This document shows positions 6,542-12,643 of a stretch of 12,643 nucleotides of DNA, in pieces. Both the position numbers and the translations under genes were made by a program. Each line of letters starts with the position of its first letter. The first letter of the stretch is position 1. The DNA comes from a virus. Lineage: Duplodnaviria; Heunggongvirae; Uroviricota; Caudoviricetes. The DNA is taken from positions 64,001 to 76,643 of the IMG/VR virus record IMGVR_UViG_3300032320_002688, one strand, 5' to 3'. The notes beneath the pieces are model-generated. The model saw only the letters and a list, made by a program, of their open reading frames with translations. It searched no databases and was not told where the DNA came from.

Positions 6542-8968
6542 TTAAAATTCTTTATTTCTCATGAATGAAACAATAATATATCTTTTACCATCTAAAACAG
6601 GGCGAGCGCCGTGTTTATGTGTAATATTTCCTGGATGGACACTTACATAGCCTTGTGGAGGTTTTGATAATTTCTTTTGGCGCCAAAACCAAGTACCACC
6701 ACCAAGATAATCTTCATCTTTTTCAGATAAATTTACTAATGCAGTAATATGTGAATGGTCGTGATGAATACTTAAATGTCCCTGAGTATCTGGTGTATAA
6801 CGTGCTAAAAAGTTTTCAGCAGTTAATTGATCCCAACCTTTGCCTTCCAAACCATATTTGTGTATTGCCATAGGCATAACAAATTCCCAAAGTAAATCAT
6901 AATAAATTTTATCAAACCCAATTTCAGTTAATACGAAATCAGTTGTAGGATAAAATTCATGACGAGCAAAAGTCCATACTTGAGCGTGTTCAGCTTCTTC
7001 AATTATTTTATTACAAAATTCTTTGGTAAACAAAGGATAGACAAAAGCTCCATCAAATTCTTCGTCAACAAATAAATCCCATTCTTTTTTAATTAAGCCA
7101 GGCACTAAAAATTTTCTATGCCATGCAGCAGTGTCGTTCCAGTATTGATATAACTCTGGATGCAACGGGGTATATTCCTTATCCATAATTTTTATTGTAA
7201 GTTTTGGTGTTTCTATTGGTGTTAAATGTATATTTTCTGTTTGTGATTTATTATCTTTTTGTACAACATATTCTATTGTAGTAGCAAATGCGTTTACTTT
7301 ACGATTGTCATGTTTATTTAATAAATCAATTACATCCGTTCTAAAATGAGTATCATATAGTGTAGGTAAAAATTCATCGGTAGGGATTAAATTTTCTTCT
7401 AATTTTTTGCTAATTAATATATCAACTCCATTTTTACTTAAAGCATAAGCATGAGCATTATATGAAAATAAAGGACGAACGAAATAGGCATTATGGTTTT
7501 GTTCAGGTAAATTTCTTATTAAATTTCTACCTAAATGAATTAAATCCCATTTATGTAATGATTGAATTATATCTTGATCAAAAGGTTGAGTAAATGAAAA
7601 ATCTTCTTCTAATATTAATACTGAATCAAATTTGTTTTCATATGCATCTTTCCAACATTTGATGTGAGATAAAACACATCCAATTTCTCCAGGAGTAATA
7701 TCTCGTTGGTGAAACTTAGATTCATCATTAAATTTTTTATCAATTCTATTTTGTTCAAATTCATCTCCTATTTTCCATCCATTCCAAGGTTTAAAATCGA
7801 ATCCTGGATTTGGATTTCTTCCATCAATTCCCTCTATAAAAGCTACTGATTCATATTCAATATTGCTTTCATCTAAACGTTTAAGAGCGTCTTGTTTATA
7901 TTCATCTGTTTTATCAAGTGATATAATATAAACACAATCAAAACTATAACAGCTATCTATAAATGATTTCCATACACACCCAATACGATCTATACTAAAT
8001 ACAGAAGCATATCTTTTATTATATCTTGCTCTATCATCCTGTGCCGGATAATCAATTATTTTAATTATATCAAGATAATATCCTAATTCTTCACCAGGAT
8101 GTTTGATAAATTCAGCAGTATGAATTATTTCTGGAAGTGCACCTATTGGTGATGTTATTATTTTACATCCAGCTAATTGTGCTTCAACAGCAGTTATACA
8201 AAATGTCTCTTCGTATTGGGTTGGGTAAAACCAATATTCTGCTTTGCTATATTCTTGGCGGAGTGTTTTAGTATCAACGTTACCAATAAAATGAACGTCC
8301 TTTAAATTTAGTTTCCTATACGTTTGATTAAATACATCTAAACCGTATTTGGGACAAAATACTTTTAATGTAGCATTTGGTTTTATATCTTTAATATAGT
8401 ACCAAAGTTCAAGTAAAGTATCTAATCCACGTTCAGGGTGTGATGAATATATAAATGAATCTTTTACCTTTTCTTCATCAGTAAAATTTGTTACATCAAC
8501 ACTATTATAAATTATTTTAATTTTATCTAGCGGATAATTATATTTTTCTGCTGTATTTTTTTTATGCCACTCAGAAACGCATATTATACCTGATAGTTTA
8601 GGTAATAAATCTCTACCTTCATTAGGTAAAGTTTCACCTTTATAATAAGGGTAATATTCTGTATTATGTAACCAAAGATAGGTTTTATTATAATCTACTT
8701 TATTTTCTATATCAAGTAAAAAATGTATATAACCTACACCAATTACAACATCATATTTTCTTTTAGTTTTCCAGAGTAATTCTCTATTAATATATTCTAC
8801 TCCATCAACAGACATTTCAGCAACGTCTCCTGTTACATAAACATTAAATTCTTTAGCAAGATATTTTACTGTATTAAGTAGTACCTGTTCGGTTCCACCA
8901 AGTTCTCTATCTATTGGTGAAAATAAGTTATCATAATAACCTATGTGGAATAAAACATTTAATTTCAT
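6542..8968 (-). CDS. Three-domain collagen-modifying enzyme candidate: GT4 glycosyltransferase + COLGALT-like GT25 + PLOD-like lysyl hydroxylase (808 aa from ATG 8968)
   Basis: The ORF track starts at TTG 8992. ATG 8968 lies 1 nt after the upstream TAG and is the more likely start. Three domain signatures are listed separately below. Confidence 0.88.
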   Translation of the reverse strand: MKLNVLFHIGYYDNLFSPIDRELGGTEQVLLNTVKYLAKEFNVYVTGDVAEMSVDGVEYINRELLWKTKRKYDVVIGVGYIHFLLDIENKVDYNKTYLWLHNTEYYPYYKGETLPNEGRDLLPKLSGIICVSEWHKKNTAEKYNYPLDKIKIIYNSVDVTNFTDEEKVKDSFIYSSHPERGLDTLLELWYYIKDIKPNATLKVFCPKYGLDVFNQTYRKLNLKDVHFIGNVDTKTLRQEYSKAEYWFYPTQYEETFCITAVEAQLAGCKIITSPIGALPEIIHTAEFIKHPGEELGYYLDIIKIIDYPAQDDRARYNKRYASVFSIDRIGCVWKSFIDSCYSFDCVYIISLDKTDEYKQDALKRLDESNIEYESVAFIEGIDGRNPNPGFDFKPWNGWKIGDEFEQNRIDKKFNDESKFHQRDITPGEIGCVLSHIKCWKDAYENKFDSVLILEEDFSFTQPFDQDIIQSLHKWDLIHLGRNLIRNLPEQNHNAYFVRPLFSYNAHAYALSKNGVDILISKKLEENLIPTDEFLPTLYDTHFRTDVIDLLNKHDNRKVNAFATTIEYVVQKDNKSQTENIHLTPIETPKLTIKIMDKEYTPLHPELYQYWNDTAAWHRKFLVPGLIKKEWDLFVDEEFDGAFVYPLFTKEFCNKIIEEAEHAQVWTFARHEFYPTTDFVLTEIGFDKIYYDLLWEFVMPMAIHKYGLEGKGWDQLTAENFLARYTPDTQGHLSIHHDHSHITALVNLSEKDEDYLGGGTWFWRQKKLSKPPQGYVSVHPGNITHKHGARPVLDGKRYIIVSFMRNKEF
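6554..7171 (-). other. Domain 3: PLOD-type lysyl hydroxylase (2OG-Fe(II) dioxygenase)
   Basis: YPLFTKEFCNKIIEEAEH, YPTTD, EIGFD, RYTPDTQGHLSIHHDHS, DYLGGG and HPGNITHKHGARPVLDGKRYIIVSF. From recall, these parallel PLOD1 FPIFTEVACDELVEEMEH, VPTID, QIGFE, RYKPDEQPSLMPHHDAS, DYEGGG and [25 protein letters not shown]. Intact Fe ligands are H743, D745 and H794, with 2OG-binding R804 (ORF-track numbering). Confidence 0.88.
7223..7945 (-). other. Domain 2: GT25 glycosyltransferase resembling procollagen galactosyltransferase (COLGALT)
   Basis: FDCVYIISL, EGIDG, ITPGEIGCVLSHIKCWK, LILEED, WDLIHLGR, SYNAHAYALS and IPTDEFLPTLYDTH. From recall, these parallel COLGALT1 FDEVFMINL, EAVDG, LTKGELGCFLSHYNIW, LVFEDD, WDLIYVGR, SYWTLAYVIS and LPVDEFLPVMFDKH. 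Confidence 0.8.
7955..8968 (-). other. Domain 1: GT-B fold family 4 (retaining) glycosyltransferase
   Basis: LGGTE, WLHN, CVSEWH, IYNSVD, YSSHPERGL and the E-x7-E motif ETFCITAVEAQLAG. Confidence 0.85.
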
Positions 8969-8969
8969 A

Positions 8970-9560
8970 CTATTTGTAGCTATCACCTCCAACCCATAAT
9001 ACTAATGATTTACGAGTACCTTGAGTTACTGGAGTTACACGATGTAAAATATAAGAAGGGAATACTAAAACACATCCTTTAATTTTAGGTAATGTTTCTG
9101 GATTTTTTCCTCTTAGAATCTGAAAATCACCTCCTTCATATTCATCATCTCCTGAAAGTTGAACTGTAATACTAATTTTTCTTTGATTTAATGGATATCC
9201 ACCTCCTACGTCTAAGTGATAGTCATAATGACCACCATCTTGATAATACTCAGTGTATTGGACTTGTTCATTCATTCCAGTAAGGGAAAATTTCCAAAGA
9301 GCATTATTTGCTTCGGTAACCATATCGCCTAACTTTTCATAAACCCATTTGTATCTATCAACTTGTGGAATCCATGCTATTGCACTTTTTCTCATTTCAT
9401 TATTTACTACACCAGCATCAGTAATACCAGCAGTAGTTAATCCCCAATTTGTAGATTCAGCAATAATTTGGTCTACTTCTTCACTTGTAAATCCAGTTTT
9501 AAACCAATACCATTCTAAAGGGTCGTGGGCTGTGTTTGATTGCAGTTGAAATTTATACAT
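8970..9560 (-). CDS. 2OG-Fe(II) oxygenase (PKHD-type / prolyl-hydroxylase-like), 196 aa
   Basis: HYDYHLD (HxD), RKISITVQLS, YEGGDF and FPSYILHRVTPVTQGTRKSLVLW (distal His and Arg). Confidence 0.9.
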   Translation of the reverse strand: MYKFQLQSNTAHDPLEWYWFKTGFTSEEVDQIIAESTNWGLTTAGITDAGVVNNEMRKSAIAWIPQVDRYKWVYEKLGDMVTEANNALWKFSLTGMNEQVQYTEYYQDGGHYDYHLDVGGGYPLNQRKISITVQLSGDDEYEGGDFQILRGKNPETLPKIKGCVLVFPSYILHRVTPVTQGTRKSLVLWVGGDSYK

Positions 9561-9646: not shown

Positions 9647-10003
9647 TTATCCTACTTTTTCCTTAAGTCTATCTACTTCTGCTTTTAATTCCTTAATAGC
9701 TTCGATTAACAATGGAACGATTTTTTCATACTGAACTGTGCGGAAATTCTCACCTGATTTAGATTTTTCAATTCTATTGCCGTTTTCGTCTTCAACATAT
9801 TCTCTATCGAATGGAGCTAATTTAACCGCTTCTGGTAATATTGCTTCTAATTCGTCTGCGAATACACCGACAATTCTACTTCTTGTATCGTATCCATAGC
9901 TTCCTGCTAATTCGTTATGGGTATAAGTTATACCATTTAACGTTTGTAATTTATCAAGAGCATTTTCAATTACTTTTACATTATCTTTTAATCTTCTATC
10001 TGA
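9647..10003 (-). other. Peptidase_S74 self-cleaving chaperone domain
   Basis: SDRRLK (Ser/Lys i, i+5 dyad), [28 protein letters not shown] and the terminal coiled coil [15 protein letters not shown]. Confidence 0.92.
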
Positions 10004-12643
10004 GTAATAAGCAACGATTTCACCTGATGCTAAGATATCACCTGGAGATCCATAATATCCTAAACCAACACCTAAGGCATTTAATGCTTGGTTTGTTGGG
10101 CCTGGAGGACCTGTTGGGCCTTGTGGACCTTGAGGACCAGGAGCACCTGTACCACCACCAGGGCCTTGAGGACCTGGGGCACCAGTACCACCTGTATTAC
10201 CTTTGTTACCTTGAGCACCTTGAGCACCCTGTGGACCTGTTGGACCAGGAGCACCAACTCCACCACCAGGACCTGTTGGGCCTATTTCACCCTTTTGTCC
10301 TTTAGCACCTGTACCACCACCAGGACCTGTTGGACCTACGTTACCTTGAGGACCTGTTGGACCAGGAGAACCAGTATTACCTTTGTTACCTTGAGGGCCT
10401 TGAGCACCTGTTGGACCTACGTTACCTTGGGCACCAACTTCACCTTTTTGGCCTTTAGCACCTTGAGGACCTGTAGCACCTTGAGGACCTACGTTACCTT
10501 GAGGACCTGTTGCTCCTGGAGCACCTGTTGGACCTACGTTACCTTGAGGACCGGTTGAGCCTATTTCCCCCTTTTGTCCTTTAGCACCTTGAGGACCTGT
10601 TGGACCAGGAGAACCTGTTGGACCTACGTTACCTTGAGGACCTGTTGGACCTGGAGAACCTGTAGCACCCGTTGCACCTTTAGCACCTGCATTACCTTGA
10701 GGGCCAGGACCACCTGTTGGACCTGTAGGACCAGTTGAACCAGTATTACCTTTTGCACCTTGAGGACCTTGAGGACCTGTTGGACCTAAGTTACCTTTTG
10801 CACCTTGTGGACCTGTTGGACCTACGTTACCTTGAGGACCTGTAGCACCTTGAGCTCCAGTATTACCTTTAGCACCTTGAGCACCTTGAGCACCTTGTGG
10901 ACCAGGAGCACCTGTACCACCTTGAGCACCTGTAGCACCCTTAACACCTTGAGGACCTGTAGGACCTGTTGGGCCTAAATCACCTTTTGCACCTGTTGGA
11001 CCTGTTGGACCTACGTTACCTTGAGGACCTGTAGAACCAGTAGAACCTTTAGCACCAGTATTACCTTGTGGACCAGGAGCACCTGTAGCACCTGAAGAAC
11101 CACTTGTGCCTGATGAACCTGAAGTTCCGTTAGCACCTGCGTTACCTTGAGCACCTTGAGGTCCAGGAGCACCTGTATTACCTTTAGCACCTGTATTACC
11201 TTGAGGACCTGTAGCGCCTGATGTGCCTGAAGATCCACTTGAACCTGATGTACCTGATGAACCACTATTACCTACTTCACCTTTTTGTCCTTTAGCACCT
11301 TGAGGACCTGTAGCACCTGAAGTACCACTTGAACCTGATGTACCGCTTGAACCTGATGAACCTGATGTTCCTGATGAACCTGATGAACCTGATGTTCCTG
11401 ATGAACCACTTGTTCCACTTGAACCTGATGATCCTGAAGTTCCGCTTGAACCTGAAGTTCCGCTTGAACCTGATGATCCTGAAGTTCCGCTTGAACCAGA
11501 TGAGCCTGATGTTCCTGAAGAACCAGATGTACCTGATGAACCAGATGAACCTGAAGATCCACTTGAACCTGAAGTTCCAGATGAACCAGAAGTTCCTGAT
11601 GTACCACTTGAACCCGAGCTACCTGAAGTGCCTGATGAGCCACTTGAACCAGATGAACCTGATGTACCTGAAGAACCAGATGAACCTGAGCTACCTGAAG
11701 TTCCACTTGCACCGTCTATTCCACTTGTACCACTTGTACCACTTGAACCTGATGTTCCTGAAGAACCTGATGTACCACTAGTTCCTGAAGAACCTGATGT
11801 ACCACTTGAACCTGAAGTTCCTGATGAACCTGACGTACCATTAGTTCCTGATGATCCACTTGAACCTGATGTTCCACTTGTTCCCGAAGAACCGCTTGTT
11901 CCACTCGTTCCATTTGTGCCAGAAGTACCATTTGTTCCTGATGAACCTGAGGTTCCTGAAGTACCATTTGTTCCTGAAGAACCTGAAGTTCCACTTGTAC
12001 CAGACGTTCCGTTTGTTCCAGAAGTACCTGAGGTTCCGCTGGTTCCTGAAGTTCCATCTGTACCACTTGTTCCTGACGAACCTGAAGTTCCTGAAGAACC
12101 ACTAGTTCCTGAAGTTCCACTTGTACCAGACGTTCCGTTTGTTCCAGAAGTACCTGAGGTTCCGCTGGTTCCTGAAGTTCCATCTGTACCACTTGTTCCT
12201 GACGAACCTGAAGTTCCTGAAGTTCCTGAAGAACCACTAGTTCCTGAAGTTCCGTCTGTACCACTTGTTCCTGACGAACCTGAAGTTCCTGACGAACCTG
12301 AAGTTCCTGAAGAACCTGAAGTTCCTGATGAACCACTTGTTCCTGATGATCCACTTGTTCCTGATGTACCATCTGTTCCACTAGTTCCTGATGAACCTGA
12401 AGTACCACTTGTTCCTGAAGAACCACTTGTTCCAGACGTTCCATTAGTTCCTGATGAACCACTTGTTCCTGATGTACCATCTGTTCCACTAGTTCCTGAT
12501 GAACCTGAAGTACCACTAGTTCCTGAAGAACCACTTGTTCCTGATGAACCACTTGAACCTGAAGTTCCACTAGTTCCTGATGTTCCGTCTGTACCACTAG
12601 TTCCTGATGAACCACTTGTTCCTGATGAACCACTTGTTCCTGA
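9647..12643 (-). CDS. Giant collagen-like fibre protein with C-terminal Peptidase_S74 intramolecular chaperone, partial (998 aa in window; start lies beyond the right edge)
   Basis: The frame from 12643 (S-GTS-GSS...) to TAA at 9649..9647 is exactly 999 codons. Gly codons stay in 9-nt phase at 12640, 11317, 11281 and 10102. The protein ends ...[44 protein letters not shown]...[27 protein letters not shown]. Confidence 0.93.
10094..11317 (-). repeat. Pro/Lys-containing collagen triple-helix repeat, 136 Gly-X-Y triplets
   Basis: Hand translation: GPQ, GPT, GAT, GNV, GAP and GAK triplets without interruption. GAKGQKGE[VI] occurs four times. Confidence 0.95.
11982..12222. repeat. Perfect 115-bp direct repeat, period 126 bp
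   Basis: 11982..12096 is identical to 12108..12222, including rare synonymous codons. Confidence 0.85.
12351..12541. repeat. 83-bp direct repeat with 1 mismatch, period 108 bp
   Basis: 12351..12433 versus 12459..12541, differing only at 12410/12518. Confidence 0.8.

Follow-up and report, generated by a model that had tools for sequence, protein, structure and literature searches.

Textbooks treat hydroxylysine and its Glc-Gal glycoside as hallmarks of animal collagen, in which LH3/PLOD3 and COLGALT1 (GLT25D1) convert lysine to hydroxylysine (Hyl), Gal-Hyl and Glc-Gal-Hyl. To our knowledge, these modifications have been shown outside animals for mimivirus only. The L230 protein of Acanthamoeba polyphaga mimivirus is a bifunctional collagen lysyl hydroxylase (LH) and hydroxylysine glycosyltransferase, whose LH domain is available as PDB 6ax6, and it acts on the virus's own collagen-like proteins. 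Bacterial GT25 enzymes of LOS/LPS synthesis (LgtB, Lic2A and Lex2B, and the beta-1,4-GalT of PDB 8xlz) are stand-alone glycolipid enzymes of about 250 aa. Iyer et al. 2010 (PMC2938197) considered prokaryotic 2OG dioxygenases whose genes neighbour those of collagen-like or tail-collar proteins, and in that part of their survey they predicted that these enzymes hydroxylate the neighbouring proteins and that such dioxygenase-collagen systems predate the eukaryotic ones; a PLOD-type LH fused to GT25 is not among the systems of that part. We found no paper describing a PLOD-type LH-GT25 module in phages.

Here we describe such a module in a 12,643-nucleotide stretch (the window) of the uncultured virus record IMGVR_UViG_3300032320_002688. 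Like L230, the encoded viral protein joins a glycosyltransferase to a C-terminal PLOD-type LH, but it comes from a tailed phage of a bacterium. It also differs from the human pathway in being one polypeptide instead of two ER proteins. The GT1 domain of COLGALT1 and the GT and AC domains of PLOD are absent from it, as are signal or ER-retention features.

Domain organization of the fusion enzyme

The predicted product of the fusion gene is a three-domain enzyme, GT4-GT25-LH (Table 1). The open frame (6542-8992, minus strand, 816 aa) extends to a TTG at 8992, and the ATG listed in the table is the likely start codon; the resulting 808-aa product is 100% identical to the database protein P0004. 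Residue numbers used here follow the 816-aa frame. GT4 is a retaining glycosyltransferase family and GT25 an inverting one. Sequence matches of the GT4 domain to GT4 enzymes in the PDB were weak. No match was found to the part of COLGALT1 that precedes its residue 309 or so, and the N-terminus is occupied by the GT-B fold GT4 domain in place of the non-catalytic GT1 domain of COLGALT1. The GT25 domain is joined to LH with nothing between them, and neither PF25342 nor PF13704 was found in the query by Pfam, whereas the L230-like class has a PLOD-type GT/accessory region between GT25 and LH.

Table 1. Features of the phage locus, in coordinates of the window
Feature	Position	Strand	Remarks
Collagen-like fibre gene	9647..12643	-	open at contig end, >998 aa
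Stand-alone 2OG-Fe(II) oxygenase, 196 aa	8970..9560	-	PF13640; PKHD/P4H-like
Fusion gene GT4-GT25-LH	6542..8968	-	808 aa from the likely start, ATG at 8968
GT4 domain, N-terminal, GT-B	7958..8968	-	residues 9-345; Pfam PF00534, PF13692, PF13439
GT25 domain, COLGALT1-like	7193..7957	-	residues 346-600; PF01755, 66 bits
GT25 donor site	7601..7690	-	G435/G438/C439, E462-E463-D464; COLGALT1 alignment
PTDEFLPTLYDTH motif of GT25	7346..7384	-	D539 opposite COLGALT1 Asp522
LH domain, PLOD/L230-type	6545..7192	-	residues 601-816
Pre-catalytic HPELYQYWNDTAAWHRKF segment	7109..7162	-	aligned to PLOD3 LHPDLWQIFDNPVDWKEQY; PF25238
LH active site	6581..6799	-	Y732, H743-x-D745, H794, R804

Assignment of the LH domain to the collagen lysyl hydroxylases

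Judged from profile searches and a predicted fold, the C-terminal domain is a member of the collagen lysyl hydroxylase family (PLOD1-3 and mimivirus L230). When we searched the PDB with the single sequence using phmmer, PLOD3 was matched at 2.4e-27 and the L230 LH domain at 3e-24. With the family profile the values were 4e-44 and 6e-41, respectively, while the next family reached only 0.13. The AlphaFold model of the domain (pLDDT 89) was compared with the L230 LH domain by Foldseek, giving a TM-score of 0.90, an rmsd of 1.6 Å and 30% identity, and the BLASTP identity to animal PLOD and giant-virus-type LH was likewise about 30%. The alignment to human PLOD3 starts in the pre-catalytic segment and stays collinear up to the C-terminus.

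The putative active site is also shared. Residues H743, D745 and H794 align with the 2-His-1-carboxylate Fe(II) triad (HxD...H) of PLOD3 and L230, and the ligands of the 2OG C5-carboxylate keep the L230 spacing, Y732 lying 11 residues before the first His and R804 10 residues after the last. These five residues correspond to L230 Y814, H825, D827, H877 and R887, whose roles have been described (PMC5802723), and all of them are invariant among 30 relatives.

A preliminary description of residues ~350-813 (6554-7945) had proposed that both this domain and the GT25 domain resemble the collagen enzymes beyond their catalytic cores and share ancestry with those of animals and giant viruses. All motifs it quoted are present between residues 536 and 693, namely IPTDEFLPTLYDTH at 536, VNAF at 566, HPELYQYWNDTAAWHRKF at 611, PLFT at 653, PTTD at 682 and IGF at 691. 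Its COLGALT1 counterpart was recovered in the HMMER alignment, which reads ...LPVDEFLPVMFDKHP...LHAFS, and its PLOD counterpart, LWEVFSNPEDWKEKY, is found in PLOD1 of monotremes (P0318 and P0325). The extended likeness was borne out in LH, where the LH-specific pre-catalytic extension (PF25238) covers residues 605-711 and the match to PLOD3 begins at residue 609, and in GT25, where the match continues through the PxDEF segment. Mimivirus R699 is a PLOD-GT-type enzyme and not a GT25; the GT25-like mimivirus protein in the PDB is R655.

The GT25 domain resembles COLGALT1

Sequence and fold comparisons showed that the middle domain resembles COLGALT1 more than the bacterial LPS/LOS GT25s, with which it shares the CAZy/Pfam family and the GT-A core. 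A single-sequence search of the PDB matched COLGALT1 at 6e-14, and the family profile matched it at 4e-38 (columns 3-221), followed by R655 at 3.6e-11 and a bacterial beta-4-GalT GT25 at 1.5e-7. When the phage family was aligned by hhalign, the collagen-type GT25 gave an E-value of 2.4e-54 (score 360, 223 columns), compared with 6e-34 for the LPS-type (score 229, 196 columns, probability 99.9%). In Foldseek comparisons, COLGALT1 was superposed with an rmsd of about 3 Å at 24% identity and the bacterial GT25 with about 11 Å at 15%. BLASTP identity was 29-31% across about 210 aa to giant-virus-type proteins and 30% over only 95 aa to named enterobacterial GT25s, and alignments of LOS/LPS enzymes to the query end after about 95-180 residues. 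COLGALT1 has the PxDEF motif, as do 20 of 24 giant-virus-type and 26 of 33 phage-type sequences, whereas it is missing from all 22 LPS-type bacterial GT25s. The motifs GExGCxxSH and E[ED]D of the GT25 core are common to the query and LPS-type enzymes.

The domain is collinear with the GT2 domain of COLGALT1, and most of the residues important there are kept. The uridine-site residues G435, G438 and C439 correspond to COLGALT1 Gly408, Gly411 and Cys412, and the metal motif E462-E463-D464 corresponds to Glu435-Asp436-Asp437, with Glu replacing the middle Asp. These donor-site residues, whose roles in COLGALT1 we took from PMC12003778, are invariant among 30 relatives, as is D539 of PTDEF. The latter lies opposite the essential Asp522 of COLGALT1 PVDEF, mutation of which abolishes Gal-T activity (PMC12003778). 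By alignment, LH and GT25 thus both retain the residues required for catalysis. The essential Trp495, which lines the acceptor crevice of COLGALT1, is not kept and is replaced by Asn512; two residues further, the phage family has an invariant His514 resembling the GTHGY motif of the LPS-type. Because of these two differences, the acceptor pocket of the phage GT25 and its sugar may differ from those of COLGALT1.

The fusion gene lies beside a collagen-like fibre gene in a tail module

In the product of the fibre gene, 283 GXY triplets follow one another without interruption, an S74 intramolecular chaperone lies at the C-terminus, and all 18 of its Lys residues in the window are at the Y position, so that the presumed acceptor motif of the human pathway, X-Lys-Gly, is present. 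Sheath, tube, baseplate and tape-measure genes adjoin, which identifies the virus as a tailed phage; its sheath shares 50% identity with the sheath of Flavobacterium phage immuto. The gene order of collagen, oxygenase and fusion enzyme is kept in relatives from 94% down to 35% identity. Among 43 informative related loci (those with at least 4 kb of upstream sequence), a collagen ORF was found upstream on the same strand in 32 and the stand-alone oxygenase was syntenic with the fusion gene in 28, while no collagen ORF was found within 10 kb in 7. In 50 distinct collagen ORFs, Lys occurs 42 times at X and 2656 times at Y (98% Y), a preference that occurs in unmodified collagens too, and Arg occurs 113 and 60 times, respectively. 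Lys occupies Y in 22% of the triplets of these collagens (2656/11,963). Bacterial GT4-LH genes were found to have no collagen neighbours.

Distribution and phylogeny

Clustering of the relatives gave 405 groups at 90% identity and, with E<=1e-3, 2786 at 50% identity. The suspected phage reservoir of such enzymes exists: 425 IMG/VR contigs carry a relative. Ten loci were detected in 185,579 species genomes, by a scan that used one stricter pattern, so that this count and the 425 are not directly comparable. A full match was present in only 1 of 401 genomes (one Flavobacteriaceae-family sample). Among 50,697 cultured-phage records, none matched the LH domain at >26% identity; tblastn of cultured phages did not find the GT4-GT25-LH fusion, and megablast of the window against them returned low-complexity collagen matches only. 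Both domains belong to a large and diverse clade found mainly in uncultured tailed phages.

In a careful maximum-likelihood (ML) tree of LH, whose bootstrap was not fully settled, the LH family was separated from a P4H-like outgroup at 100/100. Animal PLODs (100/100) fell within an 18-row clade (100/98) that they share with GT25-GT_PLOD-LH proteins, whose neighbouring genes are giant-virus-like, and the query, unlike L230-type enzymes, lay outside that clade, among phage-type architectures that made up a clade of 13 rows (95/70). Larger quick trees gave the same picture. The backbone was not resolved even when rooted with P4H-like proteins, and the direction of transfer, which the preliminary description had raised as a question, is therefore not called. 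Of the basal LH lineages in the sample, the majority are of the phage type or are small and stand-alone.

The ML tree of GT25 consisted of three clades joined at an unresolved centre, and the LPS-type clade of 23 rows (SH-aLRT 97) excluded the 36-row clade of the query (95). In AU tests, neither a grouping of phage with collagen-type sequences (p 0.65) nor one of phage with LPS-type sequences (p 0.66) was rejected. Both constrained trees were about 9.7 log-likelihood units above the quick free tree and could not be told apart, so the tests reveal no more than a suboptimal quick search and a deep node without resolution. Taxon sampling for the trees was seeded from the phage query, and they were built without animal COLGALT, full-length L230, R655, Neisseria LgtB and Haemophilus Lex2B; animal COLGALT was represented by COLGALT1-like proteins, namely P0170, a member of the GT25-GT_PLOD-LH class that matches COLGALT1 at 1e-57 and the L230 LH at 1.4e-63, and its relatives. 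When we searched for animal COLGALT1/2 with a giant-virus-type protein cut to its first 440 aa, in a length range chosen to leave out L230-like proteins, only bacterial and metagenomic GT25s were returned, and a comparable query approach did recover animal PLODs. Among the control genomes, PF01755 was present in Bacteroides thetaiotaomicron only.

The proposed kinship with animal and giant-virus collagen enzymes thus holds for LH in the tree, the profile gap and the predicted fold. For GT25 it is favoured by scores, structure and motif, while the three-way split of the tree is compatible with a phage clade that is sister either to the collagen-type or to the LPS-type. Neither domain nested among LOS/LPS GT25s or unrelated oxygenases. 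The trees place the phage LH and GT25 clade apart from the clade of animal PLODs and giant-virus L230-type enzymes; its likeness to them is therefore attributed to old common ancestry and not to recent capture.

Proposed function and alternative explanations

Overall, we consider it likely that the gene encodes a collagen-type GT4-GT25-LH enzyme of an old phage clade, acting on the phage's own fibre. The fibre is the presumed substrate, and we infer both the hydroxylation by LH and the identity of the sugar. Late in infection, the fibre, whose gene lies two genes upstream, would be hydroxylated by LH at lysines in the Y position (X-Lys-Gly), and GT25 would put a beta-linked hexose on the hydroxylysine. 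A second sugar, in alpha linkage, may come from the GT4 domain; it would then replace the PLOD-type GT domain, found equivalently placed in other phage and giant-virus versions, although as a GT-B enzyme it is unrelated to the corresponding human domain. The small neighbouring 2OG oxygenase probably hydroxylates another fibre residue.

Recent horizontal capture of LH and GT25 from a eukaryote or a giant virus might be suspected from the top PDB matches, which are human and mimivirus proteins, and from the occurrence of both giant viruses and phages in marine habitats (the scaffold L093 is from TARA). However, the PDB contains no phage or bacterial LH, so this ranking is biased, and the query is only about 30% identical to the LH of animal PLODs and of the giant-virus type. 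We rejected such a capture, which we regard as extremely improbable, since the 100/98 branch joining animal and giant-virus-type LH excludes the query and the phage clade is deep, with hundreds of clusters reaching down to 35% identity. It is also very unlikely that GT25 and GT4 are ordinary LPS/LOS-type enzymes that remodel the host surface (for example in superinfection exclusion) beside a generic 2OG oxygenase, with a superficial likeness to collagen enzymes. The Pfam family assigned here, PF01755, is indeed named for LPS biosynthesis, and relatives have the same annotation at JGI; the shared core motifs, His514 and the AU test, which leaves the phage and LPS-type grouping standing, are consistent with that assignment. 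On the other hand, the LPS-type GT25s form a separate clade, the profile, hhalign and fold comparisons all fall on the COLGALT1 side, the oxygenase is LH-specific (~1e-44 vs 0.13), and the coding sequence is joined to that of LH, in synteny with collagen genes within the tail module.

An unlikely, though less remote, alternative is that LH and GT25 are a true pair whose substrate is another virion or host protein with X-Lys-Gly. The seven loci with no nearby collagen ORF and the bacterial GT4-LH genes would fit this, and human LH3 and COLGALT1 also modify some non-collagen proteins (cited in PMC12003778); yet synteny with collagen genes is tight across distant relatives, the neighbouring collagens are rich in Y-position Lys, and the seven exceptions may hold collagen genes elsewhere in the genome. 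Within the preferred reading, an enzyme of an old phage clade acting on its own fibre, it can be suggested tentatively that PLOD-type hydroxylase and COLGALT-type GT25 chemistry arose and diversified in phage (and bacterial) fibre modules, passed to giant viruses and then to pre-metazoan eukaryotes, and that phage fibres with glycosylated hydroxylysine are ancestral. We hold this order of events to be rather doubtful. The LH backbone is compatible with it; the basal lineages in the sample are mostly of the phage type or small and stand-alone, and animal sequences lie within those of the giant-virus type.

Implications

If the proposed function is true, collagen lysine chemistry extends to viruses of bacteria, and it would add a new layer to phage fibre biology that concerns stability, host recognition and shielding. 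The phage proteins, each a compact enzyme in a single chain, might be of use for modifying recombinant collagens in bacteria, and they would supply a missing prokaryotic-virus branch for asking where the metazoan collagen toolkit originated.

Gene organization of the window

The window forms the end of an IMG/VR viral contig (76.6 kb, about 46% complete) and spans its last 12.6 kb, with all of the large genes on the minus strand. The sheath encoded there shares 50% identity with the sheath of Flavobacterium phage vB_FspM_immuto, and the G+C content of the contig is 33%. Based on the tail genes, the immuto-like sheath and the G+C content, the virus is a myovirus, and its host probably belongs to Bacteroidota.

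Features of the window and domains of the fusion enzyme (residue numbers follow the 816-aa form)
Feature	Position	Strand	Remark
Collagen-like fibre gene	9647-12643	-	Open at contig end
2OG oxygenase, PKHD/P4H-like	8970-9560	-	196 aa
Target ORF (fusion enzyme)	6542-8992	-	816 aa counted from TTG
89-aa ORF	After target ORF in gene order		
Tail sheath, tail tube, T4-baseplate-like protein, tape-measure protein	Beyond 89-aa ORF in gene order		
GT4	Residues 79-326 of target ORF		Pfam
GT25	Residues 354-481 of target ORF		Pfam
OGFOD2-like pre-catalytic domain	Residues 605-711 of target ORF		Pfam
2OG-Fe(II) core	Residues 729-812 of target ORF		Pfam

The TTG at 8992 assigned by the ORF caller overlaps the 3' end of the upstream oxygenase gene. 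The true start is probably the ATG at 8968, which follows the stop codon of that gene by one base and also begins an identical database protein of 808 aa. Within the fibre, the N-terminal half (11318-12643) consists of a run of GTS/GSS triplets, without proline and perfectly in collagen register, which lifts the local G+C to about 50% vs about 30% in the remaining window.

Both domains resemble collagen-modifying enzymes

The similarity to collagen enzymes spans whole domains and is statistically overwhelming. When the whole protein was compared with the PDB using phmmer, the lysyl hydroxylase (LH) domain matched PLOD3 (2.4e-27, residues 609-811) and the mimivirus L230 LH (3e-24), and a profile of 30 diverse relatives strengthened these matches to 4e-44 and 6e-41, respectively, with a prolyl 4-hydroxylase as the next-best structure at just 0.13. 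The AlphaFold model of residues 346-816 (mean pLDDT 89) superposes on the L230 LH at 1.6 Å with a TM of 0.90. Tyr732, His743, Asp745, His794 and Arg804 are invariant across the 30 relatives, and their spacing is that of L230 Tyr814, His825, Asp827, His877 and Arg887, which are the 2OG and Fe ligands (PMC5802723). The motif strings quoted in the preliminary description were all located in the protein where claimed, and the partner strings given there are real: LWEVFSNPEDWKEKY is found in monotreme PLOD1, and LPVDEFLPVMFDKHP...LHAFS of COLGALT1 stands opposite the phage consensus in the alignment.

For the GT25 domain, COLGALT1 was detected at 6e-14 in the same phmmer search, and the GT25 profile matched COLGALT1 at 4e-38 (columns 3-221 of 244), mimivirus R655, a GT25-like protein with a solved structure, at 3.6e-11, and bacterial GT25 beta-1,4-galactosyltransferases at 1.5e-7 and 7.8e-6. 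The model fits COLGALT1 at about 3 Å over 245 columns with 24% identity, whereas its fit to the bacterial GT25 and R655 structures is poor (rmsd 7-12 Å, 15% identity). R699, listed for the trees in the preliminary description, is kin of the PLOD GT domain and not of GT25. Gly435, Gly438 and Cys439 align with COLGALT1 Gly408, Gly411 and Cys412, Glu462 and Asp464 with Glu435 and Asp437, and Asp539 of the PTDEF motif with Asp522, whose mutation destroys Gal-T activity (PMC12003778). The essential Trp495 of COLGALT1 is absent, Asn512 being the aligned position, and the nearby His514, invariant in the phage family, is reminiscent of the GTHGY motif of the bacterial LOS/LPS (LPS-type) GT25.

While the GExGCxxSH and E[ED]D core motifs are present in every GT25 group, the PxD[EQ][FWYL] segment is shared by human COLGALT1, most phage-type domains (26 of 33) and most giant-virus-type domains (20 of 24), and none of 22 LPS-type bacterial GT25 has it. 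On the 255-position family HMM, LPS-type sequences align only to about 185 and giant-virus-type sequences to about 230-247; BLASTP of the query likewise extends over about 210 residues in giant-virus-type hits vs a median of 95 in named enterobacterial GT25. This segment and the longer alignments bear out the claim that the likeness extends beyond the catalytic cores. Profile-profile scores were 360 between phage and collagen-type (E 2.4e-54, 223 columns), 229 between phage and LPS-type (6e-34) and 301 between collagen-type and LPS-type.

Phylogenetic analysis

The 91-row GT25 tree shows phage-type (95), LPS-type (97) and giant-virus/collagen-type (90) clades around a centre without resolution, and AU tests reject neither the phage and collagen-type grouping (p 0.65) nor the phage and LPS-type grouping (p 0.66). 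For the trees, named animal PLODs were gathered by a length-restricted search and giant-virus-type proteins (GT25, PLOD-type GT and LH, 820-1110 aa) by a representative search. One of the latter, P0170, matches PLOD3 at 5e-78, the L230 LH at 1.4e-63 and COLGALT1 at 1e-57, and two members sit among giant-virus-like genes. In the LH tree (62 rows, LG+C20 PMSF, P4H-like outgroups), the LH family is split from the outgroup at 100/100, and animal PLODs are monophyletic (100/100) and nested with giant-virus-type proteins in an 18-row clade (100/98). The query falls within a 13-row clade of phage-type architecture (95/70). About eleven lineages, mostly of the phage type or small stand-alone LH proteins, meet in a backbone polytomy. 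Larger quick trees give the same picture; the query served as the seed for sampling, and the bootstrap was short of full convergence. In these trees the domains, proposed to share ancestry with collagen-modifying enzymes, nest neither in bacterial LOS GT25 nor in unrelated oxygenases, although the GT25 tree alone proves no collagen-type sistership.

One basal LH lineage is PLOD-like in layout, with a GT_PLOD...LH fusion, a separate upstream GT25 gene and T4-like replication genes around it, and therefore phages also hold PLOD-style architectures. Locus L095 (JACCDR011855233.1, assembly GCA_013565735.1) is an 87.5-kb contig on which a separate GT25 gene and a PLOD-GT...LH fusion of 983 aa accompany T4-like replication genes (split topoisomerase II, 5'-3' exonuclease, Metallophos); this is apparently a phage contig within a very fragmented, probably eukaryotic assembly.

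Distribution and architectures

The question whether phages hold a reservoir of collagen-type enzymes can be answered positively, since 425 IMG/VR contigs encode a relative, and for the GT25-LH part there are 405 relatives at 90% clustering and 2786 representative clusters at E<=1e-3, including 103 at <=1e-30. A scan with one stricter pattern of 185,579 prokaryotic species, each represented by one genome, gave 10 loci, several of them phage-like MAG contigs (e.g. L084), and a single full match came from searching 401 genomes of one Flavobacteriaceae-family sample with an HMM. The fusion is absent from the records of cultured phages. The architectures seen are GT4-GT25-LH, GT25-LH, GT4-LH, LH-GT25 and LH alone. 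In several relatives (L039, L050, L069, L077, L080, L082, L084), GT4 is encoded by its own gene immediately before or after GT25-LH, and the three-domain protein of the window therefore represents one of several states, fused or split, in which the module occurs.

Bacterial genomes with a G+C content of 51-67% (L085-L089; Granulosicoccaceae, Rhodobacteraceae and Chromatiales MAGs and the Aliishimia chromosome OY782680.1) carry GT4-LH fusions with 47-55% identity between their LH and the phage LH, and have no collagen-like ORF within 10 kb. On L092 (CAWKSH010000006.1, a 969-kb contig of 67% G+C), which belongs to a large, GC-rich genome that encodes Pkinase/WD40 giants, the GT25-LH gene adjoins a divergently oriented PF13640 oxygenase, and 2 kb downstream there is a collagen-like ORF of 748 aa and 141 triplets.

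Collagen neighbourhood

The order of collagen, oxygenase and fusion enzyme, or with the oxygenase behind the enzyme, is kept from 94% to about 35% identity. Among 43 viral loci having at least 4 kb upstream, a same-strand collagen-like ORF lies 0.2-3.3 kb upstream in 32, a collagen-like ORF is present on either side in 36, and the small oxygenase in 28. Across 11,963 Gly-X-Y triplets from 50 distinct collagen ORFs (window and L002-L084), Lys occupies X 42 times vs Y 2656 times, and Y in 18/18 cases in the window fibre, while Arg (113 X vs 60 Y) lacks such a bias. The acceptor motif of lysyl hydroxylases is X-Lys-Gly, and the bias fits lysyl hydroxylation of the fibre; it is consistent with this modification rather than proof of it, since unmodified collagens also favour Lys in Y. 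Most Pro residues occupy X (2781 vs 247 in Y), so that the small PKHD/P4H-like oxygenase is a doubtful candidate for a classical prolyl 4-hydroxylase acting on the Y position.

Novelty and proposed function

Mimivirus L230 (PMC5802723) and R699 were already known, other dioxygenase families have been predicted to act on prokaryotic collagen-like proteins (Iyer et al. 2010, PMC2938197), and the structure paper on COLGALT1 mentions giant-virus and bacterial BLAST hits for its GT2 domain (PMC12003778). We found no description of PLOD-type LH or COLGALT-type GT25 in bacteriophages in the literature, and what is new here is the phage lineage and the GT4-GT25-LH architecture of LH/GT bifunctional enzymes. 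We suggest that the LH domain would hydroxylate lysines of the fibre, that the GT25 domain, of an inverting family, would then add a beta-hexose, and that the GT4 domain, of a retaining family, might possibly add an alpha-hexose, in which case it would replace the PLOD-type GT of other phage and giant-virus versions.
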